From: a virus
Length of the DNA: 44,214 bases
IMG/VR virus record: IMGVR_UViG_3300045988_038936
Span: 1-44,214 of that record
Direction: 5' to 3' (one strand)
In this document: one piece after another, positions 6,844-31,500 of the stretch
Layout of the letters: each line of letters begins with the position of its first letter
Position numbering within the stretch: position 1 is the stretch's first letter
Translations under genes and position numbers: made by a program
Notes under the pieces: model-generated
Databases searched by the model: none
What the model saw: the letters and a program-made list of their open reading frames with translations, nothing else
What the model was told of the DNA's origin: nothing

Positions 6844-7554
6844 ATGAGCACCAACGACTACATCACCGACGTCACCGCCAACCTGGCCGAGTGGGGTATC
6901 GACTACCGCGAGACCACTGAGGGTGTCAGTGTCGGCAACATTCACCTCGAGATCGCCGAGGATGGATACCGCCCCACTGGCACTATCTTGGACGGCACTG
7001 AGGCGGTTGCCATCACCAGCGACGCGGACAAGGCCGCCGCGCTCCTGGCCTTCCCGCTGGCCCGCAGGGCGTGGGACCTGGGGTACGCTGGAAGCTTCGA
7101 GATTGACGTACTGGGTGGCGACCTGGACATGCGGCTGAATTTTGGCACCAGTGACGTCACTATCTCCGGCGACGTCAACGCTAGTGAGGCATTCACGGTG
7201 TCAGAACACCCCTTGTTCCGGCAGGCTGTGGACATGGAAGACTTGGGCGCCGTCATCACTTCCGTCGAACTGGCCTACTCTTCCCCCGAGGAAGCATGGC
7301 AGATACTGTGCGCGTCCAGCGATTTCGAGCACGAGTCGTGGCAGGATATCGTTGAGCGACTGAATGACTCGGTTAGGTTCTACGAGGGTGACCGACTCAC
7401 TAGGGTCGAGTCCTGGGATACGGAGCTGGTCGTCTTGGTTGAGGACTATAACCCTGAGTCCCCGGTCCGCGTGATCGACGTTGCACAGGCGACCGACACG
7501 ACGCACTGGTCTGCTAGTGACGTTGCTGCCGCCGTCCTGTGCGCGATCGCCTGA
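6844..7554 (+). CDS. Hypothetical, strongly acidic protein (236 aa)
   Basis: SD GAAAGGATC; by my count about 45 Asp+Glu versus 12 Lys+Arg. Confidence 0.7.
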   Translation: MSTNDYITDVTANLAEWGIDYRETTEGVSVGNIHLEIAEDGYRPTGTILDGTEAVAITSDADKAAALLAFPLARRAWDLGYAGSFEIDVLGGDLDMRLNFGTSDVTISGDVNASEAFTVSEHPLFRQAVDMEDLGAVITSVELAYSSPEEAWQILCASSDFEHESWQDIVERLNDSVRFYEGDRLTRVESWDTELVVLVEDYNPESPVRVIDVAQATDTTHWSASDVAAAVLCAIA

Positions 7555-7560
7555 TATCAG

Positions 7561-7606
7561 GTAGCCCGAATGGTTGTAGCGGGGGTTCGATTCCCTCGCC
7601 GGGTAC
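7561..7606 (+). other. tRNA-derived fragment: D-arm-like GTAGCCCGAATGGTTGTAGC joined directly to a T-arm GGGGG-TTCGATT-CCCTC and a 3' acceptor-like strand; no anticodon arm
   Basis: Canonical T-loop TTCGATT; no complementary 5' acceptor strand and no anticodon stem-loop, so not a functional tRNA. Confidence 0.5.
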
Positions 7607-7643
7607 GACATTCATTCATCTACCCACACGTAGGAGTCACACC

Positions 7644-7940
7644 ATGATCGCCACCGAGGACCGTCTCGCTCACGCGCTCGAGACAGCTGTAGACGACATC
7701 GAATTCAGTCTGGACGCGGCGTCCATTGATTTCGAGGTCATGACGTCACCGAACACTAACCAGTACATCATCGTCTACGCGGAGGGTGAGCGCCACGCCT
7801 ACGTCACCGCCGAACTGTCTTGGGGTGGTGAGCCCATGGTGTTTGTTGACATCTACAGTGTGGACGCCGATGGTGCGGAGTGCTGGGTGCGCGGCGACCT
7901 GACTATCGACGCAGCCATCCCATACATCATCAACGCCTGA
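7644..7940 (+). CDS. Hypothetical acidic protein (98 aa)
   Basis: ATG 7644 after GTAGGAG; about 19 Asp+Glu versus 3 Lys+Arg. Confidence 0.65.
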   Translation: MIATEDRLAHALETAVDDIEFSLDAASIDFEVMTSPNTNQYIIVYAEGERHAYVTAELSWGGEPMVFVDIYSVDADGAECWVRGDLTIDAAIPYIINA

Positions 7941-7968
7941 ACATCAGCGAACCGAAAGGAACGAAACC

Positions 7969-8445
7969 ATGAGCACTGTAGCCGAGCGCGTGCGCCTAGC
8001 ATTCAACGCGGCCACGGGAGAAAGTAAGCCCGCATCATCCTCATGGGTGGCCGCTAATCCGACGCACTACCTGGAAGTGCGGAACATTCTGGGTACGCGG
8101 CGACGCGAAGCGGTAGCCCAAGTAACGGCATTGGATTCGCTGGGCATCAAGTATCTGGCCGTAAGGAGCCAGGAGTGGACCAGTGTCGACGCGATGACTC
8201 ACCTATTAAACGATGCTGAACGGCGAGTGAAGGCCCTTGTGGCGCTGGCCGACATGCTCGGCTCAAGCGGCTGGCACGTCAGCCCCATCCGGGAACCGCT
8301 AACCTGCGGCGGCCTGGTCGCCACCAAGGATGGGAATCGGGTTCAGGTGTATTCGAATGGCGACGTGAGCGGACATGACGACGTAGCGGTCCGGTTCGCC
8401 AAGGACGCATTCGAGGTGGCGCTCGAGCGAGCACAAGCCAGCTAG
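7969..8445 (+). CDS. Hypothetical protein (158 aa)
   Basis: SD GAAAGGAAC 6 nt upstream of ATG. Confidence 0.7.
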   Translation: MSTVAERVRLAFNAATGESKPASSSWVAANPTHYLEVRNILGTRRREAVAQVTALDSLGIKYLAVRSQEWTSVDAMTHLLNDAERRVKALVALADMLGSSGWHVSPIREPLTCGGLVATKDGNRVQVYSNGDVSGHDDVAVRFAKDAFEVALERAQAS

Positions 8446-8480
8446 TCGGGATGGCCGGCCACGCAGTGTAGTGGCCGCGC

Positions 8481-8724
8481 CACCTCACCTAGAGGATGAT
8501 ACGCAGCGGGAAACGCAGGGATTGCGGAGTAGCGCTTGCGCATGTTGGTTGAGAACTACATAGAGGAACGGCCATAGGTGGCAGGCCCCGCACGCACGGC
8601 GCCGCCTCGCGTAGTCGATACAGTCTGCCCACCTATGAGTCACCTAGACCGCCCTACTGTCTAATATCTACCGACAGAGGTTTGCTGTGATCCATTTTTG
8701 GTCTAGGTGGCCCATAGGTGACCC
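8481..8724. repeat. Six copies of a YCACCTAK motif in a 310-bp non-coding gap, including a 22-bp inverted pair flanking an AT-richer 49-bp spacer
   Basis: Copies at 8485-8493, 8572-8581(rev), 8629-8639, 8640-8650, 8700-8710(rev), 8711-8724(rev). Confidence 0.7.
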
Positions 8725-8754
8725 GAACAGTTCGGGACCTGGAAAGGAACGATC

Positions 8755-9039
8755 ATGGCTAGTGGACACGTCACGTTTGATGGTGTCAGTGAGCCTATCC
8801 ACTACACGTGGATAGGTGAGGCCCTTGCTCAGTCGGGCGCCCCCACGCTCTCAGCTAACTTGCAGTCCTGGGACTTGCTTGACGCCCTGTTCCCCGACAA
8901 TCCCCATCTCTGGAACGTCGGCAAGTACCTCACCCGGTTCGGCCGCAAGGGAGGTGCGAGCAAGCGCGTAGAGGACCTGCGCAAGGCCGCAACCTACCTC
9001 GAACGCGCCATCAAGGCGGAGGAGAACCATGCCAGCTGA
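8755..9039 (+). CDS. DUF3310-like (SaV-like) protein
   Basis: WNVGKYLTRFGRKGGASKRVEDLRKAATYLERAI resembles the DUF3310 signature; SD GAAAGGAAC. Confidence 0.55.
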   Translation: MASGHVTFDGVSEPIHYTWIGEALAQSGAPTLSANLQSWDLLDALFPDNPHLWNVGKYLTRFGRKGGASKRVEDLRKAATYLERAIKAEENHAS

Positions 9040-9262
9040 CGCACCGCTCGAGCACCGCCTCATCACGCACGCGGACATGCGACGCATGCCCGACGGGGTC
9101 ACCGTATACAACGATCTACACGAACCATGGGTTAAGCACGGCCCATGGTGGCACCTCGAGGATGGCGACACTCGCCTACTCGGCACCGAACTCAAGCGCC
9201 TATCAGCGTGGCTGTACACGCTCGAGCCATTCAACCCTGCCCGATACATCCGGCAGCACTAA
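9029..9262 (+). CDS. Hypothetical protein (77 aa)
   Basis: ATG 9029 after GGAGGAG; overlaps the upstream gene by 11 nt. Confidence 0.6.
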   Translation: MPADAPLEHRLITHADMRRMPDGVTVYNDLHEPWVKHGPWWHLEDGDTRLLGTELKRLSAWLYTLEPFNPARYIRQH

Positions 9263-9289
9263 CCCCACACACCGGAAGGAACACACACC

Positions 9290-9754
9290 ATGACCACACC
9301 CATTGATGTCACCGACGTAGCACACCAGCTGGCCCAAATGTGGCCCCACGCGCGCATGCACGTAGCCCCCACGCCCATGGGTCATACGGTAGTGCTTGGC
9401 GCTACCGCAGCGGAACTCACCCCCGATTGGTGGACAGTCCGCAAGCCCTCCCAGCCCGATCGGTTCTGGGGGTACGTCGAATGCGATGAGGTCGTCATCG
9501 CGGACACGCTAGCTGAGGCGAACGCCCATAACCATCATGACTCCGTGCGGGGTCGCGTTACCGCGTTCGATCAGCGCTTGAAGGTGCGGCGCGTCGGGGA
9601 CGCGTACAGCATCACCACGGCGGAATCGGAGACCATCACCATTGCTCCGGTCGGGGGCAGGATCGCCGTGACCGCCGGCGGTGTGACCCATTATGTTGCG
9701 ACGATGGGTAACGCGATCATGGCCACGGGGTCTCTGGTGGCTTCCACGAAGTAG
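9290..9754 (+). CDS. Hypothetical protein (154 aa)
   Basis: SD GGAAGGAAC upstream. Confidence 0.65.
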   Translation: MTTPIDVTDVAHQLAQMWPHARMHVAPTPMGHTVVLGATAAELTPDWWTVRKPSQPDRFWGYVECDEVVIADTLAEANAHNHHDSVRGRVTAFDQRLKVRRVGDAYSITTAESETITIAPVGGRIAVTAGGVTHYVATMGNAIMATGSLVASTK

Positions 9755-9760
9755 CTTCCA

Positions 9761-9836
9761 GAATAGGGGGTTCCCAAAAGAATAGGGGCCTCCCAACGGA
9801 ACAGGGGGTTCCCAAAAGAATAGGGGCCTCCCAGGA
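9761..9836. repeat. Iteron array 1: four head-to-tail 19-bp units (GAAYAGGGGNYTCCCARNR), intergenic
   Basis: Units at 9761, 9780, 9799, 9818; units 1/3 and 2/4 nearly identical. Confidence 0.9.
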
Positions 9837-9847
9837 AAGGAACACAG

Positions 9848-10510
9848 ATGGCAGAACAGGTAACAGTCCACCAGGCACTAAGTAAGGTCATGGGGGACGT
9901 TCAGGCGGTCAAGAAGGACAGCAAGAACCAGGCCCAGCGATTCAACTTCCGTGGCATCGACGCGGTAATGAACGCGGTAGGGCCCGCACTACGCAAGCAC
10001 GGAGTGACCATCCTCCCCGAGGATGTGGAAGTCCACCGCAGCAACGGAACCACAGCAAGCGGAAAGCAGACAGCCGAGGTGATCGTCAAGGTCACCTACC
10101 GGGTCTACGGCCCAGCTGGGGACAGCATCCACGGGAAGGTCGCGGCCGAGGCAATGGACTTCGGTGACAAGGCGATCGCCAAGGCGATGAGTGTCGCCTA
10201 CCGGACGTTCCTCCTGCAGGCGCTCACCATTCCCACGGATGAGCCTGACCCGGACAGTGAGTCCTACGAGAGGGGGGTTCCCAGCGGAACAGGGACCTCC
10301 CAGCGGAACAGGGACCTCCCAGCGGAACAGGGGGTTCCCAAGAGAACAGCGGCCGAGCAGTGCGGAACCATCCTTGACGGGTTCTGCGCCACTCACCACC
10401 TGGACGGCGACAAGGTGCGCGAGGAGTACTTCGCAGCAGGAGGCAAGGCCAACCCGGACATGCTCAGGGCGTGGCTGGCACAGAACTACGGGGCAGGGAA
10501 GGTCCAGTGA
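9848..10510 (+). CDS. erf: ERF-family single-strand annealing recombinase
   Basis: ALSKVMGDVQAVKKDSKNQAQRFNFRGIDAVMNAVGPALRKHGVTI is a typical ERF core; the linker then C-terminal domain follow. Confidence 0.8.
   Translation: MAEQVTVHQALSKVMGDVQAVKKDSKNQAQRFNFRGIDAVMNAVGPALRKHGVTILPEDVEVHRSNGTTASGKQTAEVIVKVTYRVYGPAGDSIHGKVAAEAMDFGDKAIAKAMSVAYRTFLLQALTIPTDEPDPDSESYERGVPSGTGTSQRNRDLPAEQGVPKRTAAEQCGTILDGFCATHHLDGDKVREEYFAAGGKANPDMLRAWLAQNYGAGKVQ
10268..10343. repeat. Iteron array 2: four 19-bp units inside the erf linker coding sequence
   Basis: Units at 10268, 10287, 10306, 10325; 10287-10305 and 10306-10324 are identical but translated in different frames. Confidence 0.9.
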
Positions 10511-10959
10511 GCAAGGAGAACGCACTCCGCAGGGCGGCCATCGCGGCGCACATTGCCAAGGTGGCCTCCCAGGAGAAGAAGAAGGCCCTCAAGGAACTTG
10601 AGGAGTACATGGCCCCGGGCGACACATCCAAGCCCATGATCGACGGCCTCCAGGTCGGTACGGTGAGCGTCAGCGCACCACAGCCCCGCTACCAGGTGGT
10701 AGACGAGAAGGCCCTCGTGGCCTGGCTCGAGTGGAACAAGCCTGACGCCGTACACAAGGTACCCGCCCCATGGTTCGTCGCCACTGCCGCCCTGGATGGG
10801 TTCATCAAACAGACCGGGGAGGTCCCCGACGGGGTAGAGGTCGTTCGGGGTGACCCGCGCATCTCGGTGCGAATCTCAACAGCCCAGGAGGAGGCTATCC
10901 GCGACCTCATCTCCACAGGCGACATCAGCCTCCTCGAAATCGAGGGTGGGGATGTGTAG
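10507..10959 (+). CDS. Hypothetical protein with N-terminal coiled coil (recombination-module accessory; function unknown)
   Basis: GTGA start/stop overlap with erf; KVASQEKKKALKELEEYM helix. Confidence 0.6.
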   Translation: MSKENALRRAAIAAHIAKVASQEKKKALKELEEYMAPGDTSKPMIDGLQVGTVSVSAPQPRYQVVDEKALVAWLEWNKPDAVHKVPAPWFVATAALDGFIKQTGEVPDGVEVVRGDPRISVRISTAQEEAIRDLISTGDISLLEIEGGDV

Positions 10960-11329
10960 AAAGGGGGCTCCCAGGAAAACAGGGCCCTCCCAGGAAACAA
11001 GGGAGCTCGTGTACGAGAGGGACGGTTACCGGTGTGCTCGCTGCGGAAGGTATGCCGGTAACGGCCCCATGAGCATCCAGCACAGGAGGGCTCGTGGCAT
11101 GGGGGGCAGTAAGGCCCCCAACACGAACAGCCCCAGCAACCTTATCCTCCTTTGTGGGGATGGGGTGCGGGGCTGTCACGGGCACATCGAGCAGAACAGG
11201 GATGAGGCGCGGCGTACGGGGTTTAACGTGCCCCAGTTCGTAGCCAACCCTGAAAGCATCCCGGTCGCCTACTGGGATGGAAGGACCTACAAGCTCAACG
11301 ACGAAGGAGGCAGAGAGTGCTTGACATAG
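10952..11329 (+). CDS. HNH endonuclease
   Basis: RELVYERDGYRCARCG...SIQHRRARGMGG...NLILLCGDGVRGCHGHIE; alternative GTG start at 11008 would leave the iterons non-coding. Confidence 0.75.
   Translation: MCRKGAPRKTGPSQETRELVYERDGYRCARCGRYAGNGPMSIQHRRARGMGGSKAPNTNSPSNLILLCGDGVRGCHGHIEQNRDEARRTGFNVPQFVANPESIPVAYWDGRTYKLNDEGGRECLT
10958..11014. repeat. Iteron array 3: two good units plus one degenerate 19-bp unit
   Basis: Units at 10958, 10977 and a degenerate one at 10996. Confidence 0.8.
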
Positions 11330-11541
11330 GTGAGATCACGTACACATACGCGACCATCACGTGCGACTGGCCCGCATGCAGTAACCGCATCAAATTCACC
11401 CCAGGCCCACAGGATGTGCGTCGTGAACGCGCCGACATGTCCACACTGTGCGACCTGGCATCAGATTGGGGTTGGATCATCGATGATGGCCCCCACCCGG
11501 AGACAATCTGCCCCTACCACAATCAGAAGGAGATGAAATGA
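11317..11541 (+). CDS. Small Cys-rich (zinc-ribbon-like) protein, paralog family member A
   Basis: GTG start; CDWPAC ... DWGW ... ICPYH. Confidence 0.55.
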   Translation: MLDIGEITYTYATITCDWPACSNRIKFTPGPQDVRRERADMSTLCDLASDWGWIIDDGPHPETICPYHNQKEMK

Positions 11542-14083: not shown

Positions 14084-16240
14084 ATGACCCCCCTTGATGA
14101 AGCCATCATCGAGAATGACCTTCTCCCCGAGGATCAGCGCCTCACCAACGTCGAGCTCGCCGAGAAGTTCAGCACCTCCGAAGCGTCCGTCCGGCGCCAC
14201 CGCGCCAAACTGAAGAGGCGAGGCGCCCCCGACCTCAACCATGACCACTTCTTCAACGACGTCCCCGTGGACGCGATCGTGCAGCGCGGGAAGACGATCC
14301 GCCTACCCGACGGTTCCTACGAGAAGATCACGTGGAAGCCGGGCGCCGTCGAGATGGCCGAGGCCAAGTCGTTGTCCTACGACGACCTGGAGCCTGTCTT
14401 CCGGGAGCCTCTCCTGCCGAAGCCGGCCCCGATCGTCACGGACGACGAGGACACTCTCGTGGTCTGCATGGCGGACTTCCAGGTCGGAAAAGCGTTAGAA
14501 GATTCAACTCCGGTCCTGACGACTGAGGGGTGGAAGCGGCACGGCGATCTCCGGCCCGGCATGTCCGTCTACGGGCGGGACGGTGAGCCGAAGCGCATCC
14601 TCGCGGTGACCGGCTCGACCGAGCAGGACCTATTCGATGTCGTGTTCCCGGAAGGCCGGACCCTCCGAGCCACGTCGGGCCACCTCTGGAGCGGCCGCCG
14701 CCGCATGCACCCTAAGGGTGACACCTCCAGGTGGGAGGACCGGGAGATGACTCTCACCACCGAGGAGATCGCCAAGATTGCCCGGATGAAATGCTCCCGC
14801 CTCCGCCCGTTCAAGGTGTGGGCACATCAGCCCGTCGAGCTCCCCGAAGCGGAGCTCCCCATCGACCCCTACATTCTCGGGTTCTGGCTCGGAGATGGGG
14901 ACAAGAATTCCGGAACCATCGCCAAGGGGGCCGTGGACCGCGATCACCTGCTCACTCTTGGACACGAGGTCAAGTCCCGCGAAAACCTCTGCGCCGTGAT
15001 CGTGGACGGTCTGACCAGAGACCTCCGGCTGGCTGGTCTTAAGGGCAACAAGCACATCCCAGAGGCGTATCTGCAGGCGTCCTCCGGGCAACGCCTGGCA
15101 CTGCTCCAAGGCCTCATGGACTCCGACGGGTATTGCAGCCCTAAGAGCGGCTACATCGAGTTCAGCAACACGAACAAGGCAATCATCGACGGTGTCTTGG
15201 CCCTCCTGCATCTGGAGGGGGTTACCCCCAAGGTGACGACCGCCATCGGCCACTACGGCGACATCCAGTGCAAGCAGTACTGGCGTATCCAGTTCCGGGC
15301 CGAGCGTCCCATGTTTCGCCTGGCCCGGAAGGCGGCCCATCAGCGTCCGTCTACGGAGCGTAAGGACCATCGACTGTCCGTGATCGATGTCGTCCCGGCG
15401 GGCCGGGGGATGGCTCAGTGCATTACCGTCGAGGGAGGGGAGTACCTGGCAGGCCGCGAACTAACCCTCACCCACAACTGCGGAAGTGGTGGCGGCACAG
15501 AGGATACGGTTCGGCTCGTGCGCCGCGCAATCGGGGACATCGCGGACGACATCCGCTTCCGTGACCCCTACAAGCGCATCATCCTCGCCGACGTGGGCGA
15601 CAGCACGGAGGGGTTCTGGAACGTCGCCAGCCAGGCTCAGACCAACGACCTGAGCCTGACCGACCAGATCAGGACCGTGCAGCGCCTCTACGCCGAAGCA
15701 CTACACGCCCTCGCCCCTCTATGCTCGTCCCTCTACTACGTGGCCGTCCCGTCCAACCACTGCGCCGTTCGCACCGGGCAGGGCAAGAACTCCCGCGCTA
15801 ATTCCCCCGACGATGATTTCGGGATCATGATCTCCAAGAACATCGAGGACATCATCGCCGGGCGCCCAGGCTATGAGCACGTCACCTTCCACCGCCCTGA
15901 GAAGTGGGAGGAGGCCGTCACCGTGGACGCTGCTGACGGCACCCGCATTGGCTTCACGCACGGCCACCTGGCGGGCCAACAGTCCAAGGTGCCGGGATGG
16001 TTCAGGGACCTCGCGTTCGGGCGCAGGAGTGGTCTCTACGATGCCAGAATCCTCGTCCACGGGCACTGGCACAACTTCGCCGTAAGTCAGGCGGGGGATG
16101 CTCGCTGGATCATCTCCTGCCCCTCCGCCGACCGCGGCTCCGACTGGTGGACGAACCTGTCCGGCGACTCCACCAGGCCCGCAATCCTCACCTTCGAGGC
16201 CCAGGGCGGCAACGCCTCATCCTGGGAACTCTACTCATAG
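14084..16240 (+). CDS. HTH + calcineurin-like metallophosphoesterase, interrupted by an intein
   Basis: N-terminal HTH (NVELAEKFSTSEASVRRHR); exteins carry DFQ, VGDSTEG, SNH, THGH, VHGHWH motifs. Confidence 0.8.
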   Translation: MTPLDEAIIENDLLPEDQRLTNVELAEKFSTSEASVRRHRAKLKRRGAPDLNHDHFFNDVPVDAIVQRGKTIRLPDGSYEKITWKPGAVEMAEAKSLSYDDLEPVFREPLLPKPAPIVTDDEDTLVVCMADFQVGKALEDSTPVLTTEGWKRHGDLRPGMSVYGRDGEPKRILAVTGSTEQDLFDVVFPEGRTLRATSGHLWSGRRRMHPKGDTSRWEDREMTLTTEEIAKIARMKCSRLRPFKVWAHQPVELPEAELPIDPYILGFWLGDGDKNSGTIAKGAVDRDHLLTLGHEVKSRENLCAVIVDGLTRDLRLAGLKGNKHIPEAYLQASSGQRLALLQGLMDSDGYCSPKSGYIEFSNTNKAIIDGVLALLHLEGVTPKVTTAIGHYGDIQCKQYWRIQFRAERPMFRLARKAAHQRPSTERKDHRLSVIDVVPAGRGMAQCITVEGGEYLAGRELTLTHNCGSGGGTEDTVRLVRRAIGDIADDIRFRDPYKRIILADVGDSTEGFWNVASQAQTNDLSLTDQIRTVQRLYAEALHALAPLCSSLYYVAVPSNHCAVRTGQGKNSRANSPDDDFGIMISKNIEDIIAGRPGYEHVTFHRPEKWEEAVTVDAADGTRIGFTHGHLAGQQSKVPGWFRDLAFGRRSGLYDARILVHGHWHNFAVSQAGDARWIISCPSADRGSDWWTNLSGDSTRPAILTFEAQGGNASSWELYS
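14492..15478 (+). mobile_element. Intein (329 aa) with LAGLIDADG homing endonuclease, class-3-type signature
   Basis: Ala1 (ALEDSTPVLT), block B TSGHLW, LGFWLGDGD and LQGLMDSDGY, block F AQCITVEG, block G LTHN then Cys+1. Confidence 0.85.
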
Positions 16241-16333: not shown

Positions 16334-16381
16334 CACAAGGCCCCCGCTTGTATCACGTCGATTACAAGCGGGGGCCTTGTG
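16334..16381. terminator. Bidirectional terminator, 19-bp perfect stem, between the convergent arms
   Basis: CACAAGGCCCCCGCTTGTA / TACAAGCGGGGGCCTTGTG with 10-nt loop. Confidence 0.8.
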
Positions 16382-16387
16382 CTGCCG

Positions 16388-17407
16388 TCAATCCGGGTTC
16401 TCGATGTAGTCCACGGATACCCCGTGCACCACGAAACCGTTCGCAGGCGCCTGGATTCTGGGAGCCCACAAGCCCGTCGCCTTTGGGTCAGTGGTCGGCT
16501 TGACGAGCAGTTGGGTGGAGATGTGATCGCCGGGCTTCAGGGTGAGCTCACCGATCTTCTGCCCCTCGTCCTGCTTGACTTCGCCATTGCCGAACTCATC
16601 CCAGGTGCGAACGTTGTAGACCGGAATCTTCTCTTCCGGCTCGTCGAAGTTGCCCTTCCACGTGTAGTGGATGTTGATCTGCCACGTGCCGACCGATGGG
16701 AGCATCTGTTCCAGGCTCGGCTGGAAGCCGATAGCTCCCGGCACATGCAGCCCATCGTTCTCGAAGGTCACGCCGGCGAAACGCGGCCAGGCCGACACCG
16801 GTGCGAACTGGCGGTGCTCCATCTCCATGATATTGGTGGGCCGCACCACGAGAGTGCCGCGTGCAGTCCCCGCCGGGACGGGGAACCCGGGGTCGATGAC
16901 CAGCACCTTACTCTTGGCCTCAGCCGCGACGGCGGCGGCCTTACGGGCCTCCTCCGCCGCATACTCGACCAGAGCCCGCGGGGCGTAGGCGGCATCGGCG
17001 TCAGTCTTCGAAATGCCCTTCTCGGTAGCCTTGGCGAGTGCGTCGTTCGCGGTGGCCTTAGCACTGGCGGCGTCGGCCTTGGCTGACCGGACGCTCTCAG
17101 CGATGCCCGCCACCTGAGCCTTAGAGGCGTAGGCGGCGTCAGCCCCCTCCTTCGTGAGGGCCTTACCCGCGGTCGCCTTAGCCTCAACCGCGTCCGCGGC
17201 AGCCTTCCCGGCGACCGTGCGCAGCTGCTCCACCTTCACATCGACAGCGCTAACGTCGGCCTTAGTGGCCTTACCCGCCACCTCCTCCTTCGTAGCGAAC
17301 TTGGAGGCATCCACGGCCGGGGCGCCATCGTTGACCTTCACCCCCGACGCGCCAATGTTGATCGTCACCTGCGACGGCAGGCACTGGCCCTGCTTCTCCT
17401 CTGACAT
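16388..17407 (-). CDS. Tail-fibre-like protein: Ala-rich coiled coil with (Y/F)A(T/S)K repeats plus a globular C-terminal domain
   Basis: SKFATKEEVAGKATKADV, AAYASKAQVAG repeats shared with the 17919-19994 product. Confidence 0.6.
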   Translation of the reverse strand: MSEEKQGQCLPSQVTINIGASGVKVNDGAPAVDASKFATKEEVAGKATKADVSAVDVKVEQLRTVAGKAAADAVEAKATAGKALTKEGADAAYASKAQVAGIAESVRSAKADAASAKATANDALAKATEKGISKTDADAAYAPRALVEYAAEEARKAAAVAAEAKSKVLVIDPGFPVPAGTARGTLVVRPTNIMEMEHRQFAPVSAWPRFAGVTFENDGLHVPGAIGFQPSLEQMLPSVGTWQINIHYTWKGNFDEPEEKIPVYNVRTWDEFGNGEVKQDEGQKIGELTLKPGDHISTQLLVKPTTDPKATGLWAPRIQAPANGFVVHGVSVDYIENPD

Positions 17408-17415
17408 GCGTCTCC

Positions 17416-17919
17416 TTACGCCTGAAACTCGATACTTGCGGGCACCTCACGGGCGCCATCCCACACGGCGATAGTTGCTGCTGACTCGCGGGCACCATCC
17501 CACACGAACACCGGCTGCGCCTTGACGGGCGTCTCATAGATCTTCAGGGACGAGATCACCGCATCACCAGAACCGGCCGGGACACTGATCGACGGCAGCC
17601 ACCGGGGGGCCGTGCTCGCGGGGAGCTCAACCTCCGCCACCACCTTCGTCTGCCCCTGTGGGAGCGCGACATTAGCGACATCGAACGGGCCGTTGATCTT
17701 GGCCTTGTTGTCGTTGAACCAGTTCACGCGCAGGTCAATGCTGGCGGCGGCGGCATCCTGGTAGTCGATCTCGAACGTGAACTTACGTGACCCTACAGGC
17801 ATTGCTGCGCTGTCGTAGGGTGTGGTGGATGCGCCCGCGGGTAGGGTTGCCCCGTCGCCCTGCCGGACGCCCTTACTGCGCCACCACGCCCCCAGAACCG
17901 GGAAGATGCTATCTGTCAC
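17416..17919 (-). CDS. Hypothetical beta-rich protein with tandem VWDGARE motif (fibre-module accessory)
   Basis: GTG start overlapping the upstream stop; FVWDGARESAATIAVWDGAREVPAS. Confidence 0.55.
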   Translation of the reverse strand: MTDSIFPVLGAWWRSKGVRQGDGATLPAGASTTPYDSAAMPVGSRKFTFEIDYQDAAAASIDLRVNWFNDNKAKINGPFDVANVALPQGQTKVVAEVELPASTAPRWLPSISVPAGSGDAVISSLKIYETPVKAQPVFVWDGARESAATIAVWDGAREVPASIEFQA

Positions 17920-19994
17920 TATGCGTCCTTCCTGACGATGATCGTACCCGCCGGAGTACCCGCCGGGATAGCCTCACGCTTACCAAGCGAAAGCACCTTA
18001 GGTCGCGTACGCAATTCCTCCACCTCAAGCTTCAGCGGCAGATAGCCCTTAAGCCACGGCACCACGAGCTCGAGGACGTGCTGCGACGGCGGGTTCGCGT
18101 AGGGGTTACCGACCGGCTCCCACTGGCCGCCCCGCTGCGGGTCCTCGCGCAACTGCCCGTCGGTGATGTACAGGTGTGCGATGCCCAGCTTGTCGGCCTT
18201 GTCGAACACGCTCCGGTAGTTCTCGGAGGTGACGCCGTGGACAACAGCCCACCATCGGGTCGACGGGTATGCCTTCATGTGGTCCGGGAGGATCGGGGTC
18301 CCGGGGTCCTCGACCAGGAACGCGGCTGCATCCTTCTCGAACATCATGCACACGTCGAAGTCGAGCTTGCACATGTCCTCGGAGATGTTCGACCCCGAGT
18401 TGATGACGATGAGGAACTCCTTGCCGTACTTGGTCCTGATCTTGTCGATCAGGCTCTTGTAGGCGGGGATGCGTCCAGCCTGGGCGCCCCATCCGTTGAT
18501 GGCCTCGTCGAGGAACACGCCCTGGCAGACGTCCCCGTACTGGGTCTTGGCCTTGTCGATCTGGGAGAGGATGTACGCCTCGGTGTACTTGTCCACGTCC
18601 GGCACGTTCGCGCGCCCCGGATCACCCGCCGGAAGGGTTGCGGCGAGGTACTGGGTCTTGACGTAGAACACGGCACGCTTCGCCCCGGCCGCGAGCGCCA
18701 GTTCGGCCTGCTTCTTGAAGTCGACGTTGAACTCATCCCAGTTGCCGCTGTTGCGGTTCAGGATGACGATACCGAGGGAGCCTGCGAACTTCAGGATGCT
18801 GGTCCACTTCGATGTCTTGCCGGGCTTGCCGTCCTCGTAGTAGTCGGGCCAGAAGTAGGTCACGGGCGAGTAGTAGCGCTCACCTGGCTTGAATGGGGTG
18901 ATGGTCTTGCTGAGCACGTCGACTCGACGGGTGACGGCGTTGACGTCCTCGAGGCTAGCCCGCTGGGCGAGTTCGCGCTCAAGGTTCTGCTGCTGGACGA
19001 AGGTGCCGTAGGCGTCATCCCGGGTCAGATAGGAGGACAGGTCCACGTGCCCACCAGCCTGAGCCTGGCTCAGCTCCGCCTTCGTCGCGTAGGTAGAAGC
19101 GGCCTCAGCCTTCGGGAGAGCCGCATCAGCGATGGCCCGGGCGTTGCGGATGCTGTCCCCCATGGCCGCAACCTGAACCTTCGTCGAGTAGGTGCCGGCG
19201 GCCGTGGCGGCGGTGAGATAGTCAGAGAGCGCCGCCTGAGTGGCGTACTTGCCGTCCGCCGTGGAGGCGGTCACATACTGGCTGAGGTCCGTCTTCTTGG
19301 CGTACTTGCCGTCAGCGTCCGTAGTGGTAACGAATCGGGAAGTGTCAGGGACCGCAGGGATGGAGCCCTTCACGGCCTCGAGGGCGCTCTTCGTGGCGTA
19401 CGTAGACGATGCCTCATCCTTCGAGAGGGCGGCAGTAGCTGTGGACTTCACTCCCTCGATCTTCGCACCCAGGGCATCGTCAGCCTGCCGCATCTCCGTC
19501 TTCGTGGCGAAACCAGACAAGTCGGGTGCAGCCTGCCCACCGCCGCCCAGCTGTGCCTGAGCTAGGGCCGCCTTGGTCGCATACGTGGAGGCGGCATCCT
19601 CCGCCTTGAGGTAGCCGCCGAGCGACTCCTTGGTGGCGTAGGCGTCAGCCACGGCCTTGCTGGTGGCGTACTGGGTGAGCTCCGCCTTCGTGGCGGCCGT
19701 GGTGGACATGGAGTCGATGCGCTCGCCGAGCTTCCGCTCCGACGCCAGCGCCTCCTCCTTCGTGGCATACGTGGAGGCGGCCTCCGCCTTAGGGAGGGCG
19801 CCGTCAGCGGTGGCCTTCACCGCCTCAATACGTGAAGACAGGGAGTCGTCCCCGCGAGTCACCTCCTCCTTCGTAGCCAACGCAGACACGTCAGGAGTGC
19901 GCCCCTCCGTCGCCTTGCGTAACTGCTCCAGCTCCACCTTAGTGGCGAAGGTCCGGTCAGCCTTCTCCGTGCTGTACCAAGTCAGGTTAGTCAT
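17919..19994 (-). CDS. Tail-fibre-like protein with C-terminal Spherulin-4/GH135-like glycoside-hydrolase domain (candidate polysaccharide depolymerase)
   Basis: About 14 xYATKxxL repeats; then YFWPDYY, IVILNRNSGNW, VFYVKTQY, GVFLDEA, LIVINSGSN, MMFEK, WWAVVHGV, HLYITD in the order seen in Spherulin-4 family proteins. Confidence 0.65.
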   Translation of the reverse strand: MTNLTWYSTEKADRTFATKVELEQLRKATEGRTPDVSALATKEEVTRGDDSLSSRIEAVKATADGALPKAEAASTYATKEEALASERKLGERIDSMSTTAATKAELTQYATSKAVADAYATKESLGGYLKAEDAASTYATKAALAQAQLGGGGQAAPDLSGFATKTEMRQADDALGAKIEGVKSTATAALSKDEASSTYATKSALEAVKGSIPAVPDTSRFVTTTDADGKYAKKTDLSQYVTASTADGKYATQAALSDYLTAATAAGTYSTKVQVAAMGDSIRNARAIADAALPKAEAASTYATKAELSQAQAGGHVDLSSYLTRDDAYGTFVQQQNLERELAQRASLEDVNAVTRRVDVLSKTITPFKPGERYYSPVTYFWPDYYEDGKPGKTSKWTSILKFAGSLGIVILNRNSGNWDEFNVDFKKQAELALAAGAKRAVFYVKTQYLAATLPAGDPGRANVPDVDKYTEAYILSQIDKAKTQYGDVCQGVFLDEAINGWGAQAGRIPAYKSLIDKIRTKYGKEFLIVINSGSNISEDMCKLDFDVCMMFEKDAAAFLVEDPGTPILPDHMKAYPSTRWWAVVHGVTSENYRSVFDKADKLGIAHLYITDGQLREDPQRGGQWEPVGNPYANPPSQHVLELVVPWLKGYLPLKLEVEELRTRPKVLSLGKREAIPAGTPAGTIIVRKDA

Positions 19995-20469
19995 TCGTCC
20001 TCCATGCGAGTACTCCGTCCCCAACCTCGATCACGTCGGGGGCGTTGATTGCTTCCAGGGTGCCGTCGCCAATGTCTCGGACGCGTCGCCCGTCACGGTC
20101 GGACGGGTCCTCCACGGCGCGGCCGGAGAAGATGTCTACGAGGTCAACCTCGGTTCCGGCGATGATGCGCGCGTTGACGCAACGGGTGAGGCCAGTGTCG
20201 CCTGGGATGTTGACACACACCCGGTAGTTCTGCTCCCCGTCAGACAGGGTTGACGGGGCTGCGATGTTCAGGAACGGCTCGCCATCATGGTTGACGAGGA
20301 TGCCGTCAGAGCGAAGTCGCCCCCCGGCATAGTGTGCAATGAGGGCGTTGGTGGAGTCCACCTCAACGCCCTTGTACTGGGGGAGTGGAGTGAACTTAAC
20401 GCTCCCCATGCGGCCGAGCCCCTCAGGGCCGACCACCTTACCTGTGATGCGCGCGTACCCTTGGGTCAT
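19987..20469 (-). CDS. Minor-tail-like protein (prealbumin/CarboxypepD_reg-like N-terminus)
   Basis: ARITGKVVGPEGLGRMGSVKFTPL. Confidence 0.45.
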   Translation of the reverse strand: MTQGYARITGKVVGPEGLGRMGSVKFTPLPQYKGVEVDSTNALIAHYAGGRLRSDGILVNHDGEPFLNIAAPSTLSDGEQNYRVCVNIPGDTGLTRCVNARIIAGTEVDLVDIFSGRAVEDPSDRDGRRVRDIGDGTLEAINAPDVIEVGDGVLAWRTND

Positions 20470-20948
20470 GAACTCTCCTGACGCCGATTCGTTACAACCT
20501 TCACTCTATCAATCCGATCATGAAGGTTGGATACCTCGTCGTACAGATGAGCTCTGTCAGTGCGCGCATCATTCCTGACGCCCTCAACCTGCCCCTCCAG
20601 GCCCTGGAGCCTGCGAGACTGGTCGCTCACGCTGTCCCTGAGTGCCCCCACCACCTCAGTGAGGGCATCCATCTTGGAGGTCAGGTCATCGAATCGCATA
20701 TCTAGGTCGTCTCGCAGGTTCGTGGCGTGGTTGTTGTGCACCCCCTCGGATGCGGATTCGGCAGCATCGGCGGCGCGAGCAACATGAACACTCATTCGCT
20801 CCAGGCGCTCGTCATTCTGCGCCTGCTGCCTCTTCAGTCTACTTGCGAGTCGAGCCACAAGCGCAGCCAGCAGCGCGACCGTAGCCGCAATGAGATCAGG
20901 CGACGTGAGTATCTGGCCTATCGGCAGGACGCTCTCTACTGGCTGCAC
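20466..20948 (-). CDS. Membrane-anchored coiled-coil protein next to the holin (possible lysis accessory)
   Basis: GTG 20948; TM segment LIAATVALLAALVARLA then a long heptad-like region. Confidence 0.5.
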   Translation of the reverse strand: MQPVESVLPIGQILTSPDLIAATVALLAALVARLASRLKRQQAQNDERLERMSVHVARAADAAESASEGVHNNHATNLRDDLDMRFDDLTSKMDALTEVVGALRDSVSDQSRRLQGLEGQVEGVRNDARTDRAHLYDEVSNLHDRIDRVKVVTNRRQESS

Positions 20949-20955
20949 TGGCCAC

Positions 20956-21204
20956 TCAGCTCGCGTGGCGGGGAGTGTACTCGACGGGGGCCGTGGCGAT
21001 AGCCTTGTCCGTCTCCTTCGCGTCAGCAACGGAGGTCAGGACACTGGCCAGGACGGCGGTCGCAGCGATACCGAGAGCGCCCTTCCAGTCAATGTCGAGA
21101 ATGCCGACACCCACAACGAACGTGGCTAGCAGGGACTGGGCGAAGGTCTTCACGGCGCGGTCGAAGACGCCAGACCAGAATGAGGCTCGAGCGTAAATGC
21201 TCAT
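20956..21204 (-). CDS. Holin (r1t-type, two TM)
   Basis: FWSGVFDRAVKTFAQSLLATFVVGVGIL ... GALGIAATAVLASVLTSV; directly downstream of the lysin. Confidence 0.7.
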   Translation of the reverse strand: MSIYARASFWSGVFDRAVKTFAQSLLATFVVGVGILDIDWKGALGIAATAVLASVLTSVADAKETDKAIATAPVEYTPRHAS

Positions 21205-21280
21205 GCACTCACCCCTTTCGGAAACAACTAGGAGGCAGGACTTCCGCCCCACCCCCTAGTTTACATTGCGTCAAACGAGG

Positions 21281-22963
21281 TCACATAAGCCGGAAGCTTC
21301 CCGACCGGGAACGGTTCAGGGCCTCCTGGAGCGCCGCCCAGGTCGCCTCACCGGGCTCCCCGTCCACGTAGTCACCGAAGGACCAACCGTCAGCGAACCG
21401 GTTCCACATGTCCGGCGCGACTGGCTTCACCCAGCACCACGCCCAGTACTGGAAGACCCTCACGCAATGGGAGTCCCAGCCACGGTCCTCGGCCAGCTTC
21501 CCTGATCCAGTGAGCATCTTCTGGGAGTGCTCAGGCACGGTCTTGTTCAGGTAGCGGCGGAGGTTGGCGACGGCATACAGCTCGTTGTAGCCAGGGGCGA
21601 AGACCTCGATTAGGCGCTGCACCGTGGCGGGCCCGTACTCGCCATCCACCTCGAGAGCCCCAGCCGTAGCGACGGGGGTTGGGGCGCCGGAGATGACCTG
21701 GCCACCGCCGATCATGCGATCCCAGGTGGCCCGGTCGCGAAGCCGGTTCAGGTCGAGGTTTCCGTTGTAGCCGGGCAGGCGGCCGTCCTCCGTGTACTGG
21801 TGAATCAGCGGGGAACCCCAGTACGAGACCGACGGGACGGCCGGGTCGCTGTAGGAGGCGCCGTAGTCCGAGTAGTCGGGGCCGCCCGCGTACCAGAGGG
21901 GGTACTCGCGGGCCACGGCCGACCAGTCGTAGCCGTTCACGGCACTGCCGTTCATGTAGATGCCGGGCGTGGAGCCGGTCATCCCCTTCACGGCATCGAG
22001 GAAGGTCTTCGCCCAGCCAGGCCCCTGCTCGACCGCGTTCGCCTCCCAGTCGAGCCAGAGAGTGGCCTTACCAAGGTAACCGCGCACAGCATCCACGAAG
22101 TAGCGAGCCTGTTCCTGAGCATCCCCAGGGCGGGCGAAGTGGTAGAAGCCGAGCCGCTTCGAGGCCCCGAGGGTGGAGTTGGCCTGCGAACCCATGTACG
22201 GGTTCACATAGTCATTGTCTTCAGTCGCTTTCACGATCACGAAGTCAGCCCACAGGGCGGCCACGTTCAGACCAGACTGGTGGCTGGAGATGTCGATACC
22301 GTGCGCGTGCGCCGGGCCAGCAGGGGCGGCCGTAGACGCTGGTGCAGGCTTCGCCTGGGCGGCCTGCCCCTTACGGAACTCAGGCCACTGGCTGAGGAAC
22401 TTCCCCTCATCGAAACGATGGCAGCTAGTCCACGCCCCAGACTGGGTGTGCGGATGGCTGGAGTAGCGGACGGTACGCGTCTCCCCCCCGGTCTGGTCAC
22501 CGAGGTAGCCGTCGATGCTCCCATCCTCAGCGATCCAAGCCTCAGAAACGAGAGGGTCGCCACCATCCTCAACGGCGATGACCACATGCCCCCTGCCACC
22601 CTCGTTCGCAGCGGAGAGGATCACGTCACCGACACGGAACCCGCCAGCGGGGGTGAGGTCCGAGTCGTTCCACGGGACCTCGTTGAAGCCTCGAGCCTCC
22701 AGGCCAGGGCGCATATTGCCCGTCCAGTGGTCATTAATCTCGGGGAGGGCGGCGTGGCCCCAGGCGGCACCGTAGGTGTCGTGGATGCCATAGCAGATCG
22801 CCCCGCACACGAGACTGGAGCAGTCAGCGTTCTGCGGCGAGGACACATGCCCCTCCCAGTTAGCGTTGGCGTACCAGGTGCGACGATCGGGCTGCGAGTA
22901 CCCGACGTTCTCCTGATCGCAGATTCGGCGGGCGATACGCGCCGCCACAGACTGAACCGTCAC
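21281..22963 (-). CDS. Endolysin: NlpC/P60-like peptidase + GH25 muramidase + PG-binding repeats
   Basis: DCSSLV...GHVVIAV; HGIDISSHQ...FYHFARP...LWLDWE...IHQYT; DGEYGPATVQRL and DGEPGEATWAAL. Confidence 0.85.
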   Translation of the reverse strand: MTVQSVAARIARRICDQENVGYSQPDRRTWYANANWEGHVSSPQNADCSSLVCGAICYGIHDTYGAAWGHAALPEINDHWTGNMRPGLEARGFNEVPWNDSDLTPAGGFRVGDVILSAANEGGRGHVVIAVEDGGDPLVSEAWIAEDGSIDGYLGDQTGGETRTVRYSSHPHTQSGAWTSCHRFDEGKFLSQWPEFRKGQAAQAKPAPASTAAPAGPAHAHGIDISSHQSGLNVAALWADFVIVKATEDNDYVNPYMGSQANSTLGASKRLGFYHFARPGDAQEQARYFVDAVRGYLGKATLWLDWEANAVEQGPGWAKTFLDAVKGMTGSTPGIYMNGSAVNGYDWSAVAREYPLWYAGGPDYSDYGASYSDPAVPSVSYWGSPLIHQYTEDGRLPGYNGNLDLNRLRDRATWDRMIGGGQVISGAPTPVATAGALEVDGEYGPATVQRLIEVFAPGYNELYAVANLRRYLNKTVPEHSQKMLTGSGKLAEDRGWDSHCVRVFQYWAWCWVKPVAPDMWNRFADGWSFGDYVDGEPGEATWAALQEALNRSRSGSFRLM

Positions 22964-28536: not shown

Positions 28537-31500
28537 CTAGATGCTCGATGCGAGACGGATGCCGTCGGCCACGTCGTCTCGGGTCTTCGAGTCGCGCTGC
28601 GCCTGTGGGTAGTTGTTCACGATCGTCACCGAGCCGCCCGGACGCCGCTCCTGGCCGGCCTGGAGGGTGGAGTTGGCGATCGCGTTAAGACGATCCTTGG
28701 AGGGCTTCGTCTTCTCGAACGAGGTAGACACGGACGCTGCAATATGCGGGGCCACGTCCTTCTGAAGGTCCTCCGTGAACCCCTGGAGGGACTTACGCAC
28801 AGCCCCATACTGGGACTCGAGTCCGTTGATGAAGCCCTGCATGACAAGCTGGCCCGCATCCTTCAGGATCACACGGTCAACCGGGGCGGGCCCCTTCCAC
28901 GAGGGCAGCATGTTAGTCAGGGACGACAGCTTGTTCTTCACCGAGGAGAACATGGAGTTGATCCCATTCAGGAAGCCCTGAATGACATTCCTGCCTGCAC
29001 TCCACAGCCAGGACCCGGCGCCGGCGAAGACGTTCCTGATGCTGTTGGGAATGTTGCGCACAGTGTTCAGCATGCTATTCGTCCACGACACCACTGTGCT
29101 CACGATCCCGCTCCACATGGAGGACGTGATGCTACTGACAGCCGACCAGCCGTTGCTGATGAGGCTGCGGACCCAGTTGATCCCACCGGAGACCGTGGAG
29201 GCGATCGAGTTCCACACGCCCTTGATGGTGTTCCACACGGAGTGCCAGGCCGTGGAGGACATCGACATGATCTGGTTGCCGAAGATGCCGAACTGACCCT
29301 TGATGAGGTTCCAGATACCCTCACCGATCGTCTTGATGCCGTTCCAGGCCCCAGACCAGTCACCCTTGATGACAGCAAGGACAGTCTGGAGGACACCCTT
29401 GATGATCTGGATGGCGCCCGTCACCGTAGCCATGATCCCATTCCATGACGCCATCACCAGGGGCATGAGCCACTGCATGACCTTCCCCACCAGCTGGATC
29501 GCCGGGATCAGGGCGGACGCCAACTGCTGAACCAAAGCAACGATCGGGGGCAGAATCTGCGGCAGGTACTCGGAGATGATCGGAGCCAACTGGGCGATGA
29601 TCTCAGAGATCACCGGCACCAGCGCCTGGATCACCGGGAGTAGGGCAGCACCCAGCTGCTCAATCACCGGGACGAGGATCGGAACCAACTGCTGGAAGAT
29701 CGGAGCCAACCCCTCCACCAGCTGAGCCACCAGGGGCGCGATAGCCTCAAGGAGAGTGCCCGCGACAGTGGCGATCGCCCCGAACGCCTCACCCAGGGCA
29801 GGCATGGCCGGAGCGAGAGCCTGCACAGCCACCAGGAGGCTGTTGAAGAAGTTCGCCAGCCCATCCTGGAACGCCGGATTCTCGAGAGCTGTAGCGAGCC
29901 CAGTGAGTGCCGTGCGGAGCGTCTCACCAATCAGGGGAAGCACCACGCCAAGGGTCGGCTCGAGGGATACGAACGCCTCACCGAGCTTACCGACCCCCTG
30001 GAACGCCGAGCTAGCGGCCCGCCCCATGGAGGAGAACAGGTTCGTGAGAGTCGCCTGGAACAGGGGGCCATTCACGGCCTTGTTCGCCTTATCCAGTGCG
30101 TCAGCAATGGAGTCAATGGGGGCAGACCCGTTCGCCATAGCCTTGAACAGGCCCCCGATGATCCCACCAAGGTCGACCGTGATGTCCTTCAGGGTCCCGA
30201 ACGCCTTGGCAGCGCGACGGATCGACGCCTCCATCTGCCCGGACGCGGCAGCCTTAGACGCCCACTGCTCGAACGACGCAGCCAGACTGTTCGCCCACTG
30301 GGCGATACTGGGGAGAAACTTCGCCCCCACCTCACCCATGGTGAGGATGCCGTTCGTGAACGAGGCCGCCCCCGTAGAGCCGATCGCCAGAGCCTGAGAC
30401 AGGTAGGTGAGAGACTGCTGGAAGCCAGCAATGTGCCCACCGGCCGCCCCGGCGATGGCGGCTGTCATGGACCCCAGGTTAGAGGCGATCGACTGGAGCG
30501 CGGGCGACAGTTCCTGGATGGCGACGTTAGCGAAGTCGCGGATCGGCTGCGCCGCCTGCTCCCAGTAGGCGCCGGAGATTTGAGTCTGGAGGTTCGTGAA
30601 CGATGGCCCCAGGTCCTCGAGGACAGTCTTCGTGTCCTTGAGTGCCGTAATCAGGACGCCCGCTCCGGCGGCGGCGGCACCGAAGATGCCCGGCAGTGCC
30701 AGCAGGGCGGGCGTGGACTTGGCGATCCCCACACTCAAGGAAGAGAACACGCCCAGGCCGGAGCCGATCACCGACACTGCGCTACCAATCAAGGTGGACA
30801 CGGTGCCGATCTTCACGGCCGCCGTATCCAGGTTCCGCAGGAAGTCGTTCAGGTTGCGGCCGATCGACTCGAACACGTTCCCGCCAGCAAGAGCCTTCAA
30901 CTGGGCCGCCACGCGGGCGAGAGACGTCTTAGCCAGGCGCACATGAATGTCCACCCACCGGGGGTGAGTCAGGCGCTTAAGGTCGAACCGAGCTTTCCCG
31001 TCATCCAGGTCGGCATTCACGGTGGCCTTGCCATCGAGCTTGCTGAGCTCGTGCTTGATCTTCTTCTTCTGCTCCTCGGAGAGCTTCGCGTGCACCTCCA
31101 CGTCAGCCTTGAGGGACTCAATACGCTTCCGCAGTTCTGCGGTGGCGACAGAGTCAAGCTTCACGCCGACAGATACGTCAGCCTTCAACTTGTTAAGGCG
31201 GGCCTGGAACTGGCGGAACGACCTCTCGTTCACTGTCAGGCCGGCCTTGACGTCACCTGCGGCACGCTCCACGTCCCTCTTCAACTTAGCGAGGTCACCT
31301 GGCCGCGTAGACAGGCTGACCGCCGCGCGGATATTGTCGAGCTTCTCCTGGAGCTTCTTCTTCTGCTCCTCGGATAGGTTCGCGTTAACCTTCACCTCGG
31401 ACTTGATCTGCTGAATCTTCTTCCGAAGAGCCTCCAGCTGACCCGACTTAAGGTCCACCTCAGCCTTGAAGCGGACGTCAGACTTCGCGGCCTCCTCGCG

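Follow-up and report, generated by a model that had tools for sequence, protein, structure and literature searches.

The stretch of DNA analysed here, in the following called the window, comprises the 44,214 nucleotides of the IMG/VR virus record IMGVR_UViG_3300045988_038936 and represents an almost complete siphovirus genome (about 44 kb, about 62% GC). On its minus strand, behind the genes for endolysin and holin, lies a gene for a fibre-like protein, whose C-terminal part an earlier note, made from the letters alone, had read as a glycoside hydrolase domain of the Spherulin-4/GH135 type (18040..18890) fused to a phage fibre. The longest open reading frame (ORF) at this locus (17919..20024) comprises 701 aa if counted from a TTG codon and 691 aa if counted from an ATG at position 19994 (MTNLTWYS...). 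Judged from the sequence, this ATG is the true start, since GGAGGA is found 3 nt upstream of it and the N-termini of related proteins read MxDLTWYS. The protein can be divided into a short conserved N-terminus, a long shaft, a barrel domain and a C-terminal extension (Table 1).

All eight motifs on which the domain proposal had been built are present in the proposed order (aa 375-613, nt 18156-18872), and the proposed range covers the domain. The only family with a significant match to the domain is PF12138 (Spherulin4), with 52-53 bits and E-values of 9e-14 to 4e-14 over profile positions 15-222 of 239; in the Pfam check that the earlier note had suggested, the E-value was 9.4e-14 and the score 52 bits, compared with a gathering score of 30.2. 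The relationship to the characterised fungal enzyme Sph3 is a distant one. A single-sequence phmmer search of the domain against the Protein Data Bank (PDB) gave chance matches only and a narrow profile of close relatives gave nothing in the same database, so that Sph3 was reached exclusively by a broad family profile built from 26 diverse domain segments, which were drawn from an exhaustive search for representatives. With this profile, the 'spherulin-4' entries 5c5g/5d6t (Sph3 of Aspergillus clavatus) were matched with an E-value of 5.4e-21, and the conserved blocks of profile and Sph3 pair as YfwPd/YVYPA, NpnsGpG/NPGSGPG, gYvkTqY/GYVATTY, GvFlDE/GIFFDE, NpG/HNPG, mtfE/VVFE and hvvHdv/AVIHSV. 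Of the Sph3 blocks cited in the earlier note, seven were thereby reproduced, namely YVYPA, VVINPGSGPG, LLGYVATTY, GIFFDET, VVHNPGA, VVFEAT and AVIHSV, while the eighth block lies past the end of the alignment, but inside the Pfam match.

The predicted structure points in the same direction. An AlphaFold2 (AF2) model of aa 340-691, calculated with 16 sequences, shows eight strand-helix units, with a predicted local distance difference test (pLDDT) value of 78.4 and a predicted template modelling score (pTM) of 0.76. A Foldseek search of the PDB with this model ranked the two Sph3 entries first (5d6t with an E-value of 7.4e-9 and 5c5g with 3.5e-8; target-normalised TM-scores of 0.67 and 0.70), followed by an alpha-galactosaminidase of family GH191 in third place (E-value 5e-6) and only then by generic TIM barrels. 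The earlier note had made its proposal dependent on a significant profile or structural match to Spherulin-4/GH135, and such matches were found with PF12138, with the Sph3 profile alignment and with the fold. The motif resemblance to Sph3 at the sequence level is far above chance, and an explanation of the motifs as chance similarities was rejected in view of the E-values for the Pfam family, the broad profile and the best Foldseek match.

In the profile alignment to 5c5g, D496 and E497 (GVFLDEA) as well as E553 (MMFEKD) of the fibre protein align with D116, E117 and E172 of the Sph3 chain. Assuming an offset of +50 for the crystallised construct, these residues would correspond to D166, E167 and E222 of Sph3, of which an aspartate and Glu222 have been described as nucleophile and acid/base (PMC12054363). 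D496 and E553 do not vary within the 26 segments or within 57 full-length representatives, and E497 is conserved to at least 90% in both sets. The conservation of these three residues in relatives down to about 20-25% identity is the pattern that one would expect under selection for catalysis. On the evidence of sequence profiles and the modelled fold, the domain belongs to the Spherulin4/GH135 family as a divergent member, which shares approximately 15% identity with Sph3.

Of the 365 N-terminal amino acids, 20% are alanine and 12% threonine. The triplet ATK occurs nine times among them (0.67 times expected from shuffled sequences), and five of these triplets are part of a [LIVMFY]ATKx[DE] match, whereas 0.017 such matches are expected and not more than two were found in any of 5000 shuffles. 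In trimeric alpha/beta coiled coils, beta-layers are marked by the pattern [aliphatic]-A-T-K-[polar]-[DE] (Hartmann et al. 2016, PMC4786415), and such layers have been shown in the tail-fibre hyaluronidase of a Streptococcus pyogenes prophage (PMC4786415). In an AF2 model of the full-length protein, which we used for secondary structure only (pLDDT 56 overall and low in the shaft), breaks in the helices coincide exactly with the ATK sites 16-18, 76-78, 199-201 and 302-304, albeit with low confidence. Among close relatives the length of the shaft differs due to insertions and deletions of repeats, and the barrel is conserved. In searches with the fibre, PHROGs gave only two families without assigned function, both on the shaft, NCBIfam gave nothing for the fibre or its neighbours, and megablast of the fibre gene against isolated phages gave no match; a tblastn search with the shaft matched the phage D_HF2_7 only, and comparison of the shaft to PDB sequences yielded nothing meaningful.

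The relatives of the protein also carry fibre-type parts. A second, abundant clade possesses collagen triple-helix repeats in place of the ATK shaft. The domain partners identified in the 57 representatives are Collagen (8), a pectate-lyase-like beta-helix (7), GDSL esterase (6), Beta_helix (3), the phage tail repeat PTR (2), Phage_tail_C and Mtd_N, and only a few of these representatives resemble bacterial surface proteins (YSIRK, LPXTG or MucBP). One fold match in BFVD is fused to a J-type central-fibre domain. The motifs, the helix breaks and the collagen repeats of the relatives indicate an elongated shaft N-terminal to the enzyme head, and this shaft would be trimeric.

The closest deposited genome to the window is that of Caudovirus D_HF2_7, which stems from human saliva and has a predicted Actinomycetota host (PMC10537320). 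At the same position, this phage encodes a protein of 674 aa (WMC01261.1), the first approximately 116 aa of which are 54-67% identical to the N-terminus of the fibre, while in its C-terminal part weak signals of GDSL/SGNH and CBM5/12 take the place of Spherulin4. At the DNA level, similarity between the two genomes is lost at about 16380-19343 and returns on both sides, with 78-90% identity in the flanks. The swapped stretch of about 3 kb consists of a gene for a 339-aa protein, a gene for a 167-aa protein and the Spherulin4 head, in place of which the siblings have a GDSL/SGNH-type head. Metagenomic relatives, which we found through the endolysin, fall into two cassette types. After the holin, the Spherulin4 type (the window, L006 and L011) encodes a protein of 160-162 aa, in part also one of 170 aa, a fibre of 691-749 aa, and proteins of 167 aa and 339-354 aa, and the GDSL type (L007-L010) encodes proteins of 160 aa and 158 aa and a GDSL-type fibre of 659 aa. 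The 160-aa gene is kept in both types. In contrast, the 167-aa gene was seen only alongside a Spherulin4-type fibre, and the 339-aa gene co-occurs with this fibre in L006 and L011. Between related phages, the C-terminal, enzymatic head is exchanged as a module, which is the classic mosaic of receptor-binding and depolymerase proteins. The first 25 aa, shared by siblings with a different head, presumably form the attachment end. As to the claim of a fusion to a phage fibre, the beta-layer motifs in the N-terminal part, the collagen repeats of the relatives and the swapping of heads at the same locus speak, by inference, in its favour.

Table 1. Features of the fibre gene and of the late genes surrounding it in the window
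Feature	Residues	Position	Strand	Remarks
Fibre gene	691 aa + stop	17919..19994	minus	ATG 19994; GGAGGA at 19998-20003
Conserved N-terminal module, MTNLTWYSTEKADRTFATKVELEQL	1-25	19920..19994	minus	common to sibling phages with other head
Shaft	26-365	18900..19919	minus	Ala/Thr/Lys-rich; 9 ATK motifs, 5 matching [LIVMFY]ATKx[DE]
GH135/Spherulin4-like (beta/alpha)8 barrel	366-640	18075..18899	minus	Pfam match aa 397-614 = 18153-18806
YSPVTYFWPDYY	375-386	18837-18872	minus	motif scan
SLGIVILNRNSGNW	406-419		minus	motif scan
KRAVFYVKTQY	439-449		minus	motif scan
CQGVFLDEA	490-498		minus	motif scan
D496-E497 codons (FLDEA)	496-497	18504..18509	minus	align with Sph3 chain D116/E117 of 5c5g
EFLIVINSGSN	526-536		minus	motif scan
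DVCMMFEKD	547-555		minus	motif scan
E553 codon (MMFEKD)	553	18336..18338	minus	aligns with Sph3 chain E172 of 5c5g
RWWAVVHGV	580-588		minus	motif scan
IAHLYITDG	605-613	18156-18182	minus	motif scan
C-terminal extension	641-691	17922..18074	minus	two helices, then beta-hairpin with conserved end motif VLSLGKREAIPAGTPAGTIIVRKDA (AF2 secondary structure, alignment)
339-aa second fibre-like gene	339 aa	16388-17407	minus	last of cassette
167-aa gene	167 aa	17416-17919	minus	GTG start overlaps fibre stop by 1 nt (TAGTG)
160-aa gene	160 aa	19987-20469	minus	directly upstream of fibre gene; stop overlaps fibre start by 8 nt
Membrane/coiled-coil ORF		20466-21029	minus	after holin
r1t-type holin		20956-21252	minus	after endolysin
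GH25+ELLD endolysin		21281-22963	minus	
Tail-collar protein and 626-aa tail protein			minus	late operon, before endolysin
Tape measure, then Dit, then fn3-containing Tal-like protein		28537-31671 (tape measure)	minus	late operon
Portal, then major capsid, then tail tube		35032-36003 (major capsid)	minus	late operon
Large terminase with probable intein	905 aa	38814-41531	minus	late operon
Small terminase		41504-41941	minus	late operon

The fibre gene is the second of four tightly coupled minus-strand genes (160, 691, 167 and 339 aa) which follow the holin and the membrane/coiled-coil ORF, and beyond this cassette the early genes converge from the opposite strand. The product of the membrane/coiled-coil ORF has a single hydrophobic segment, then a long coiled coil, and weak PHROG matches to a family without function and to phrog_404 ('minor tail protein'); it may act in lysis, as a second membrane protein, or be associated with the fibre. 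The 339-aa protein possesses an alanine-rich coiled coil that includes FATKEE, carries VPAGTARGTLVVRP as an internal motif and ends in a domain of approximately 150 aa. Its coiled coil weakly matches the Tcar0761 beta-layer construct 5apz in the PDB (E-value 0.009); otherwise there was no Pfam, PHROG or PDB match for the 160-aa, 167-aa and 339-aa neighbours, and the family and PDB searches gave zero matches for the C-terminal 150 aa of the last. The 339-aa protein may represent another fibre or an adhesin, without enzymatic function, that accompanies the Spherulin4 fibre. No BLAST similarity was detected between the 160-aa protein and the N-terminal domain of the collagen-type relatives. The motif VL.L/I....(V/I)PAGT..GT(I/L)(I/V)VR has just two copies in the six-frame translation of the window (17931-17966 and 16841-16876, both minus strand), one at the extreme C-terminus of the fibre and one at the junction of shaft and head in the 339-aa neighbour. 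Many relatives of the Spherulin4 fibre have kept this motif at the C-terminus, where it may serve as a trimer cap or docking strand.

The source of the window is probably an uncultured oral siphovirus with an oral Actinomycetota host; this host is predicted from the sibling phage D_HF2_7. As further clues to the host, tRNA genes were sought in the window and none were found, and homologues of the endolysin were metagenomic proteins only, which indicated no host. Among species-representative genomes, the sole match was a contig of 3.8 kb (L004, CAUPVL010000060.1) binned in a metagenome-assembled genome (MAG) of Candidatus Saccharibacteria. With a GC content of 55.5% and 64% identity to the head of the fibre, this contig looks more like a piece of phage DNA binned by mistake than like a cellular gene. 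Two genes of the window carry insertions of another kind. In the 718-aa YonJ-like early gene (14084-16240, plus strand), an insertion of about 330 aa (about 14499-15487) with a LAGLIDADG_3 domain is missing from the homologues in D_HF2_7, L006, L007 and L011 (387-389 aa) and, since it ends with ...THN/C, is probably an intein. The large terminase possesses LAGLIDADG_3 and Hom_end homing-endonuclease domains at about aa 298-363, and this insertion is probably a second intein of the same genome.

With regard to gene position, the homologues give a mixed picture. Only two isolated phages were found to possess the domain, namely VA460, which infects Streptococcus thermophilus, and Spartoi, which infects Rothia dentocariosa. 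In VA460 the homologue is encoded between holin and lysin, and in Spartoi the gene comes after the minor tail genes. In L005, a metagenomic phage of 54.6% GC that belongs to the abundant collagen-type clade, the structural block contains the gene, at a position upstream of the tape measure gene. There, at 7153-11383, it is placed between the genes for a CHAP peptidase (278 aa) and a GDPD phosphodiesterase (597 aa), so that three predicted envelope-degrading enzymes would stand side by side in the structural block.

We consider it probable that the gene product is a trimeric side fibre of a siphovirus of an oral Actinomycetota host, the GH135-like head of which cuts a polysaccharide of the host surface or matrix. 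The N-terminus would connect this fibre to the virion, the shaft would hold out the (beta/alpha)8 barrel with its intact catalytic Asp/Glu and Glu, and the barrel would bind and cut a polysaccharide of the host surface or of the biofilm matrix. By analogy with Sph3, which is a retaining endo-alpha-1,4-N-acetylgalactosaminidase (PMC9860509), an endolytic, retaining cut would be expected, and it would give the virion access to the cell wall and to its receptor. The most likely target would be a polymer rich in alpha-1,4-linked N-acetylgalactosamine (GalNAc), similar to Pel or galactosaminogalactan (GAG). Loci for Pel, a polymer of alpha-1,4-linked GalNAc and galactosamine, are present in actinobacteria and in streptococci, among them S. 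thermophilus and S. salivarius (PMC7112168), and the GalNAc-rich Pel aggregates of the oral S. intermedius are dissolved by Sph3 (PMC12345266). The hosts of the two isolated phages with the domain, S. thermophilus and Rothia dentocariosa, are in keeping with such a substrate. The step from the enzyme family to the substrate is one that we infer from this analogy.

Several points weigh against this interpretation. The shaft was modelled as a monomer and with low confidence, the gene is located downstream of endolysin and holin and thus outside the canonical tail module, and the VA460 homologue, next to its lysis genes, has no long shaft. In addition, the identity to Sph3 is just about 15% and both NPG loops are altered in comparison to Sph3 (NRNSGNW and INSGSN). 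Because of this low identity and the changed loops the specificity may differ from that of Sph3, and another glycan is quite possible. The gene order keeps alive the idea that the protein is no part of the virion, but a soluble depolymerase, made late and either freed at lysis or acting from within, together with lysin and holin, which would cut wall-associated or matrix polysaccharide of the host and set the progeny free. The gene directly follows the GH25 endolysin, the r1t-type holin and the membrane/coiled-coil ORF in one operon, which speaks for such an enzyme, and the arrangement in VA460 and the CHAP and GDPD wall-degrading neighbours in L005 fit as well. However, a free enzyme would hardly need a conserved N-terminal module and a coiled-coil shaft with beta-layers that extends over about 340 aa, and the relatives combine the domain with collagen repeats, beta-helices and tail-protein domains. 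The location inside the structural block of L005 and behind the minor tail genes of Spartoi also disagrees with a role in lysis, and inspection of the N-terminal sequence revealed no evident signal peptide. We regard a lysis accessory as a rather unlikely, but serious competitor.

The head might also be lectin-like and non-catalytic, and only bind a host glycan as a receptor-binding domain. Enzyme folds are often reused for binding in phage receptor-binding proteins, and the two NPG loops unlike those of Sph3 could be taken in this sense. The catalytic aspartate and the second glutamate are nevertheless invariant, and the first glutamate nearly so, even in distant relatives, which makes a loss of catalysis improbable. 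The name of the Pfam family finally recalls the proposal that Spherulin4 genes of Atacama desert viruses are auxiliary 'sporulation/spherulation' genes altering host development (PMC8269230). Apart from this name and that interpretation, nothing seen here supports such a role: the sole characterised member of the family is a glycoside hydrolase (PMC9860509, PMC12054363), and the domain heads a fibre-like protein, co-occurs with tailspike-type domains and is swapped against an esterase head. For these reasons we rejected a sporulation function, to which we assign next to no probability in the present case.

The family is not rare. We found 254 close matches and, with E-values up to 1e-3, 276 clusters at 50% identity. 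Searches of the open literature that combined Spherulin, GH135, Sph3 or galactosaminidase with phage, depolymerase or tail gave no characterised phage GH135 depolymerase, and phage depolymerases are catalogued by enzyme class. The statement that this enzyme class has not been characterised on phage fibres therefore agrees with the literature searched, but needs a qualification, since near-identical phage-MAG proteins in nr and UniProt are already automatically named 'Spherulation-specific family 4 [Siphoviridae sp.]' and the domain has been noted in the desert viruses (PMC8269230). What is most likely new, as far as sequence and model can tell, is the use, in a presumed phage fibre depolymerase, of a glycoside hydrolase family that had not been recognised in such a role before. 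The finding itself amounts to known parts joined in a simple domain fusion and is interesting rather than surprising. Recognition of such genes as genes for fibre-borne glycosidases would correct the sporulation reading of viral Spherulin4 genes, add a glycoside hydrolase family to the receptor-binding repertoire of phages, suggest that phages of Gram-positive oral bacteria target GalNAc-rich, Pel-like polymers and extend the so far very small group of characterised GH135 enzymes. More tentatively, it is possible that fibres with GH135-like heads form a widespread, so far unrecognised class of depolymerases for alpha-1,4-GalNAc-rich (Pel- or GAG-like) polymers, comprising at least 276 clusters at 50% identity. 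In that case, matrix polysaccharides of the Pel type would be receptors or barriers for phages of Gram-positive oral and dairy bacteria (Actinomycetota and streptococci), and such phages would be a natural source of anti-biofilm galactosaminidases. Sph3 and PelA are under exploration as anti-biofilm agents, and stable, trimeric enzymes of this kind from phages could be of practical use.

Among the known systems, the D_HF2_7 fibre and the fibres of L007-L010 share the locus, the N-terminal module and the ATK shaft with the protein described here, but they bear a head with weak resemblance to GDSL/SGNH esterases and with a CBM5/12-like region, and the genes for 167 aa and 339 aa are absent downstream. 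The same domain, with 23-92% identity, is found in the 'Spherulation-specific family 4' proteins of uncultured phages (UniProt A0A8S5UQW3 and A0A8S5MKC6; nr P0013), in gp21 of Spartoi (362 aa) and in the VA460 protein AUN43448.1 (429 aa), the latter two of which are without long shaft and annotated as 'hypothetical protein'. The 'SSF' auxiliary genes of Atacama desert viruses (Hwang et al. 2021, PMC8269230), here likened by description only, belong to the Spherulin4 family, are carried by viruses of predicted Actinobacteria hosts and encode proteins of 1,265 aa on average; they have been interpreted as sporulation genes. With HylP1 from the S. pyogenes prophage SF370.1 (PDB 2C3F) the protein would have in common that a tail fibre with ATK-type beta-layers in a trimeric coiled coil degrades a host surface polysaccharide (PMC4786415). 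The catalytic part of HylP1 is, however, a triple-stranded beta-helix lyase, whereas the fibre of the window has a TIM-barrel hydrolase fold, and no sequence similarity was found.

The hydrolase domain of PelA (GH166), Ega3 (GH114) and GH191 share the type of barrel and the placement of Asp and Glu (PMC12054363). GH191 is the third-best fold match, with an E-value of 5e-6 compared to 7e-9 for Sph3, and neither single-sequence nor profile searches of the PDB gave a sequence-level match between the domain and the GH166, GH114 or GH191 barrels. The closest characterised system is Sph3 from A. clavatus and A. fumigatus (CAZy GH135; PDB 5C5G and 5D6T), which has PF12138, the (beta/alpha)8 barrel, the motif blocks and the catalytic Asp-Glu and Glu in common with the phage domain. 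Sph3, though, is a membrane-anchored fungal biosynthetic enzyme, whereas the domain from the window forms the head of a fibre, and besides the low identity and the changed NPG loops it differs from Sph3 by an insertion after the third strand (LPAGDPGRANVPDVDKYTE...), by a conserved C-terminal NPY..PPS segment and by a tail of helices and a beta-hairpin.

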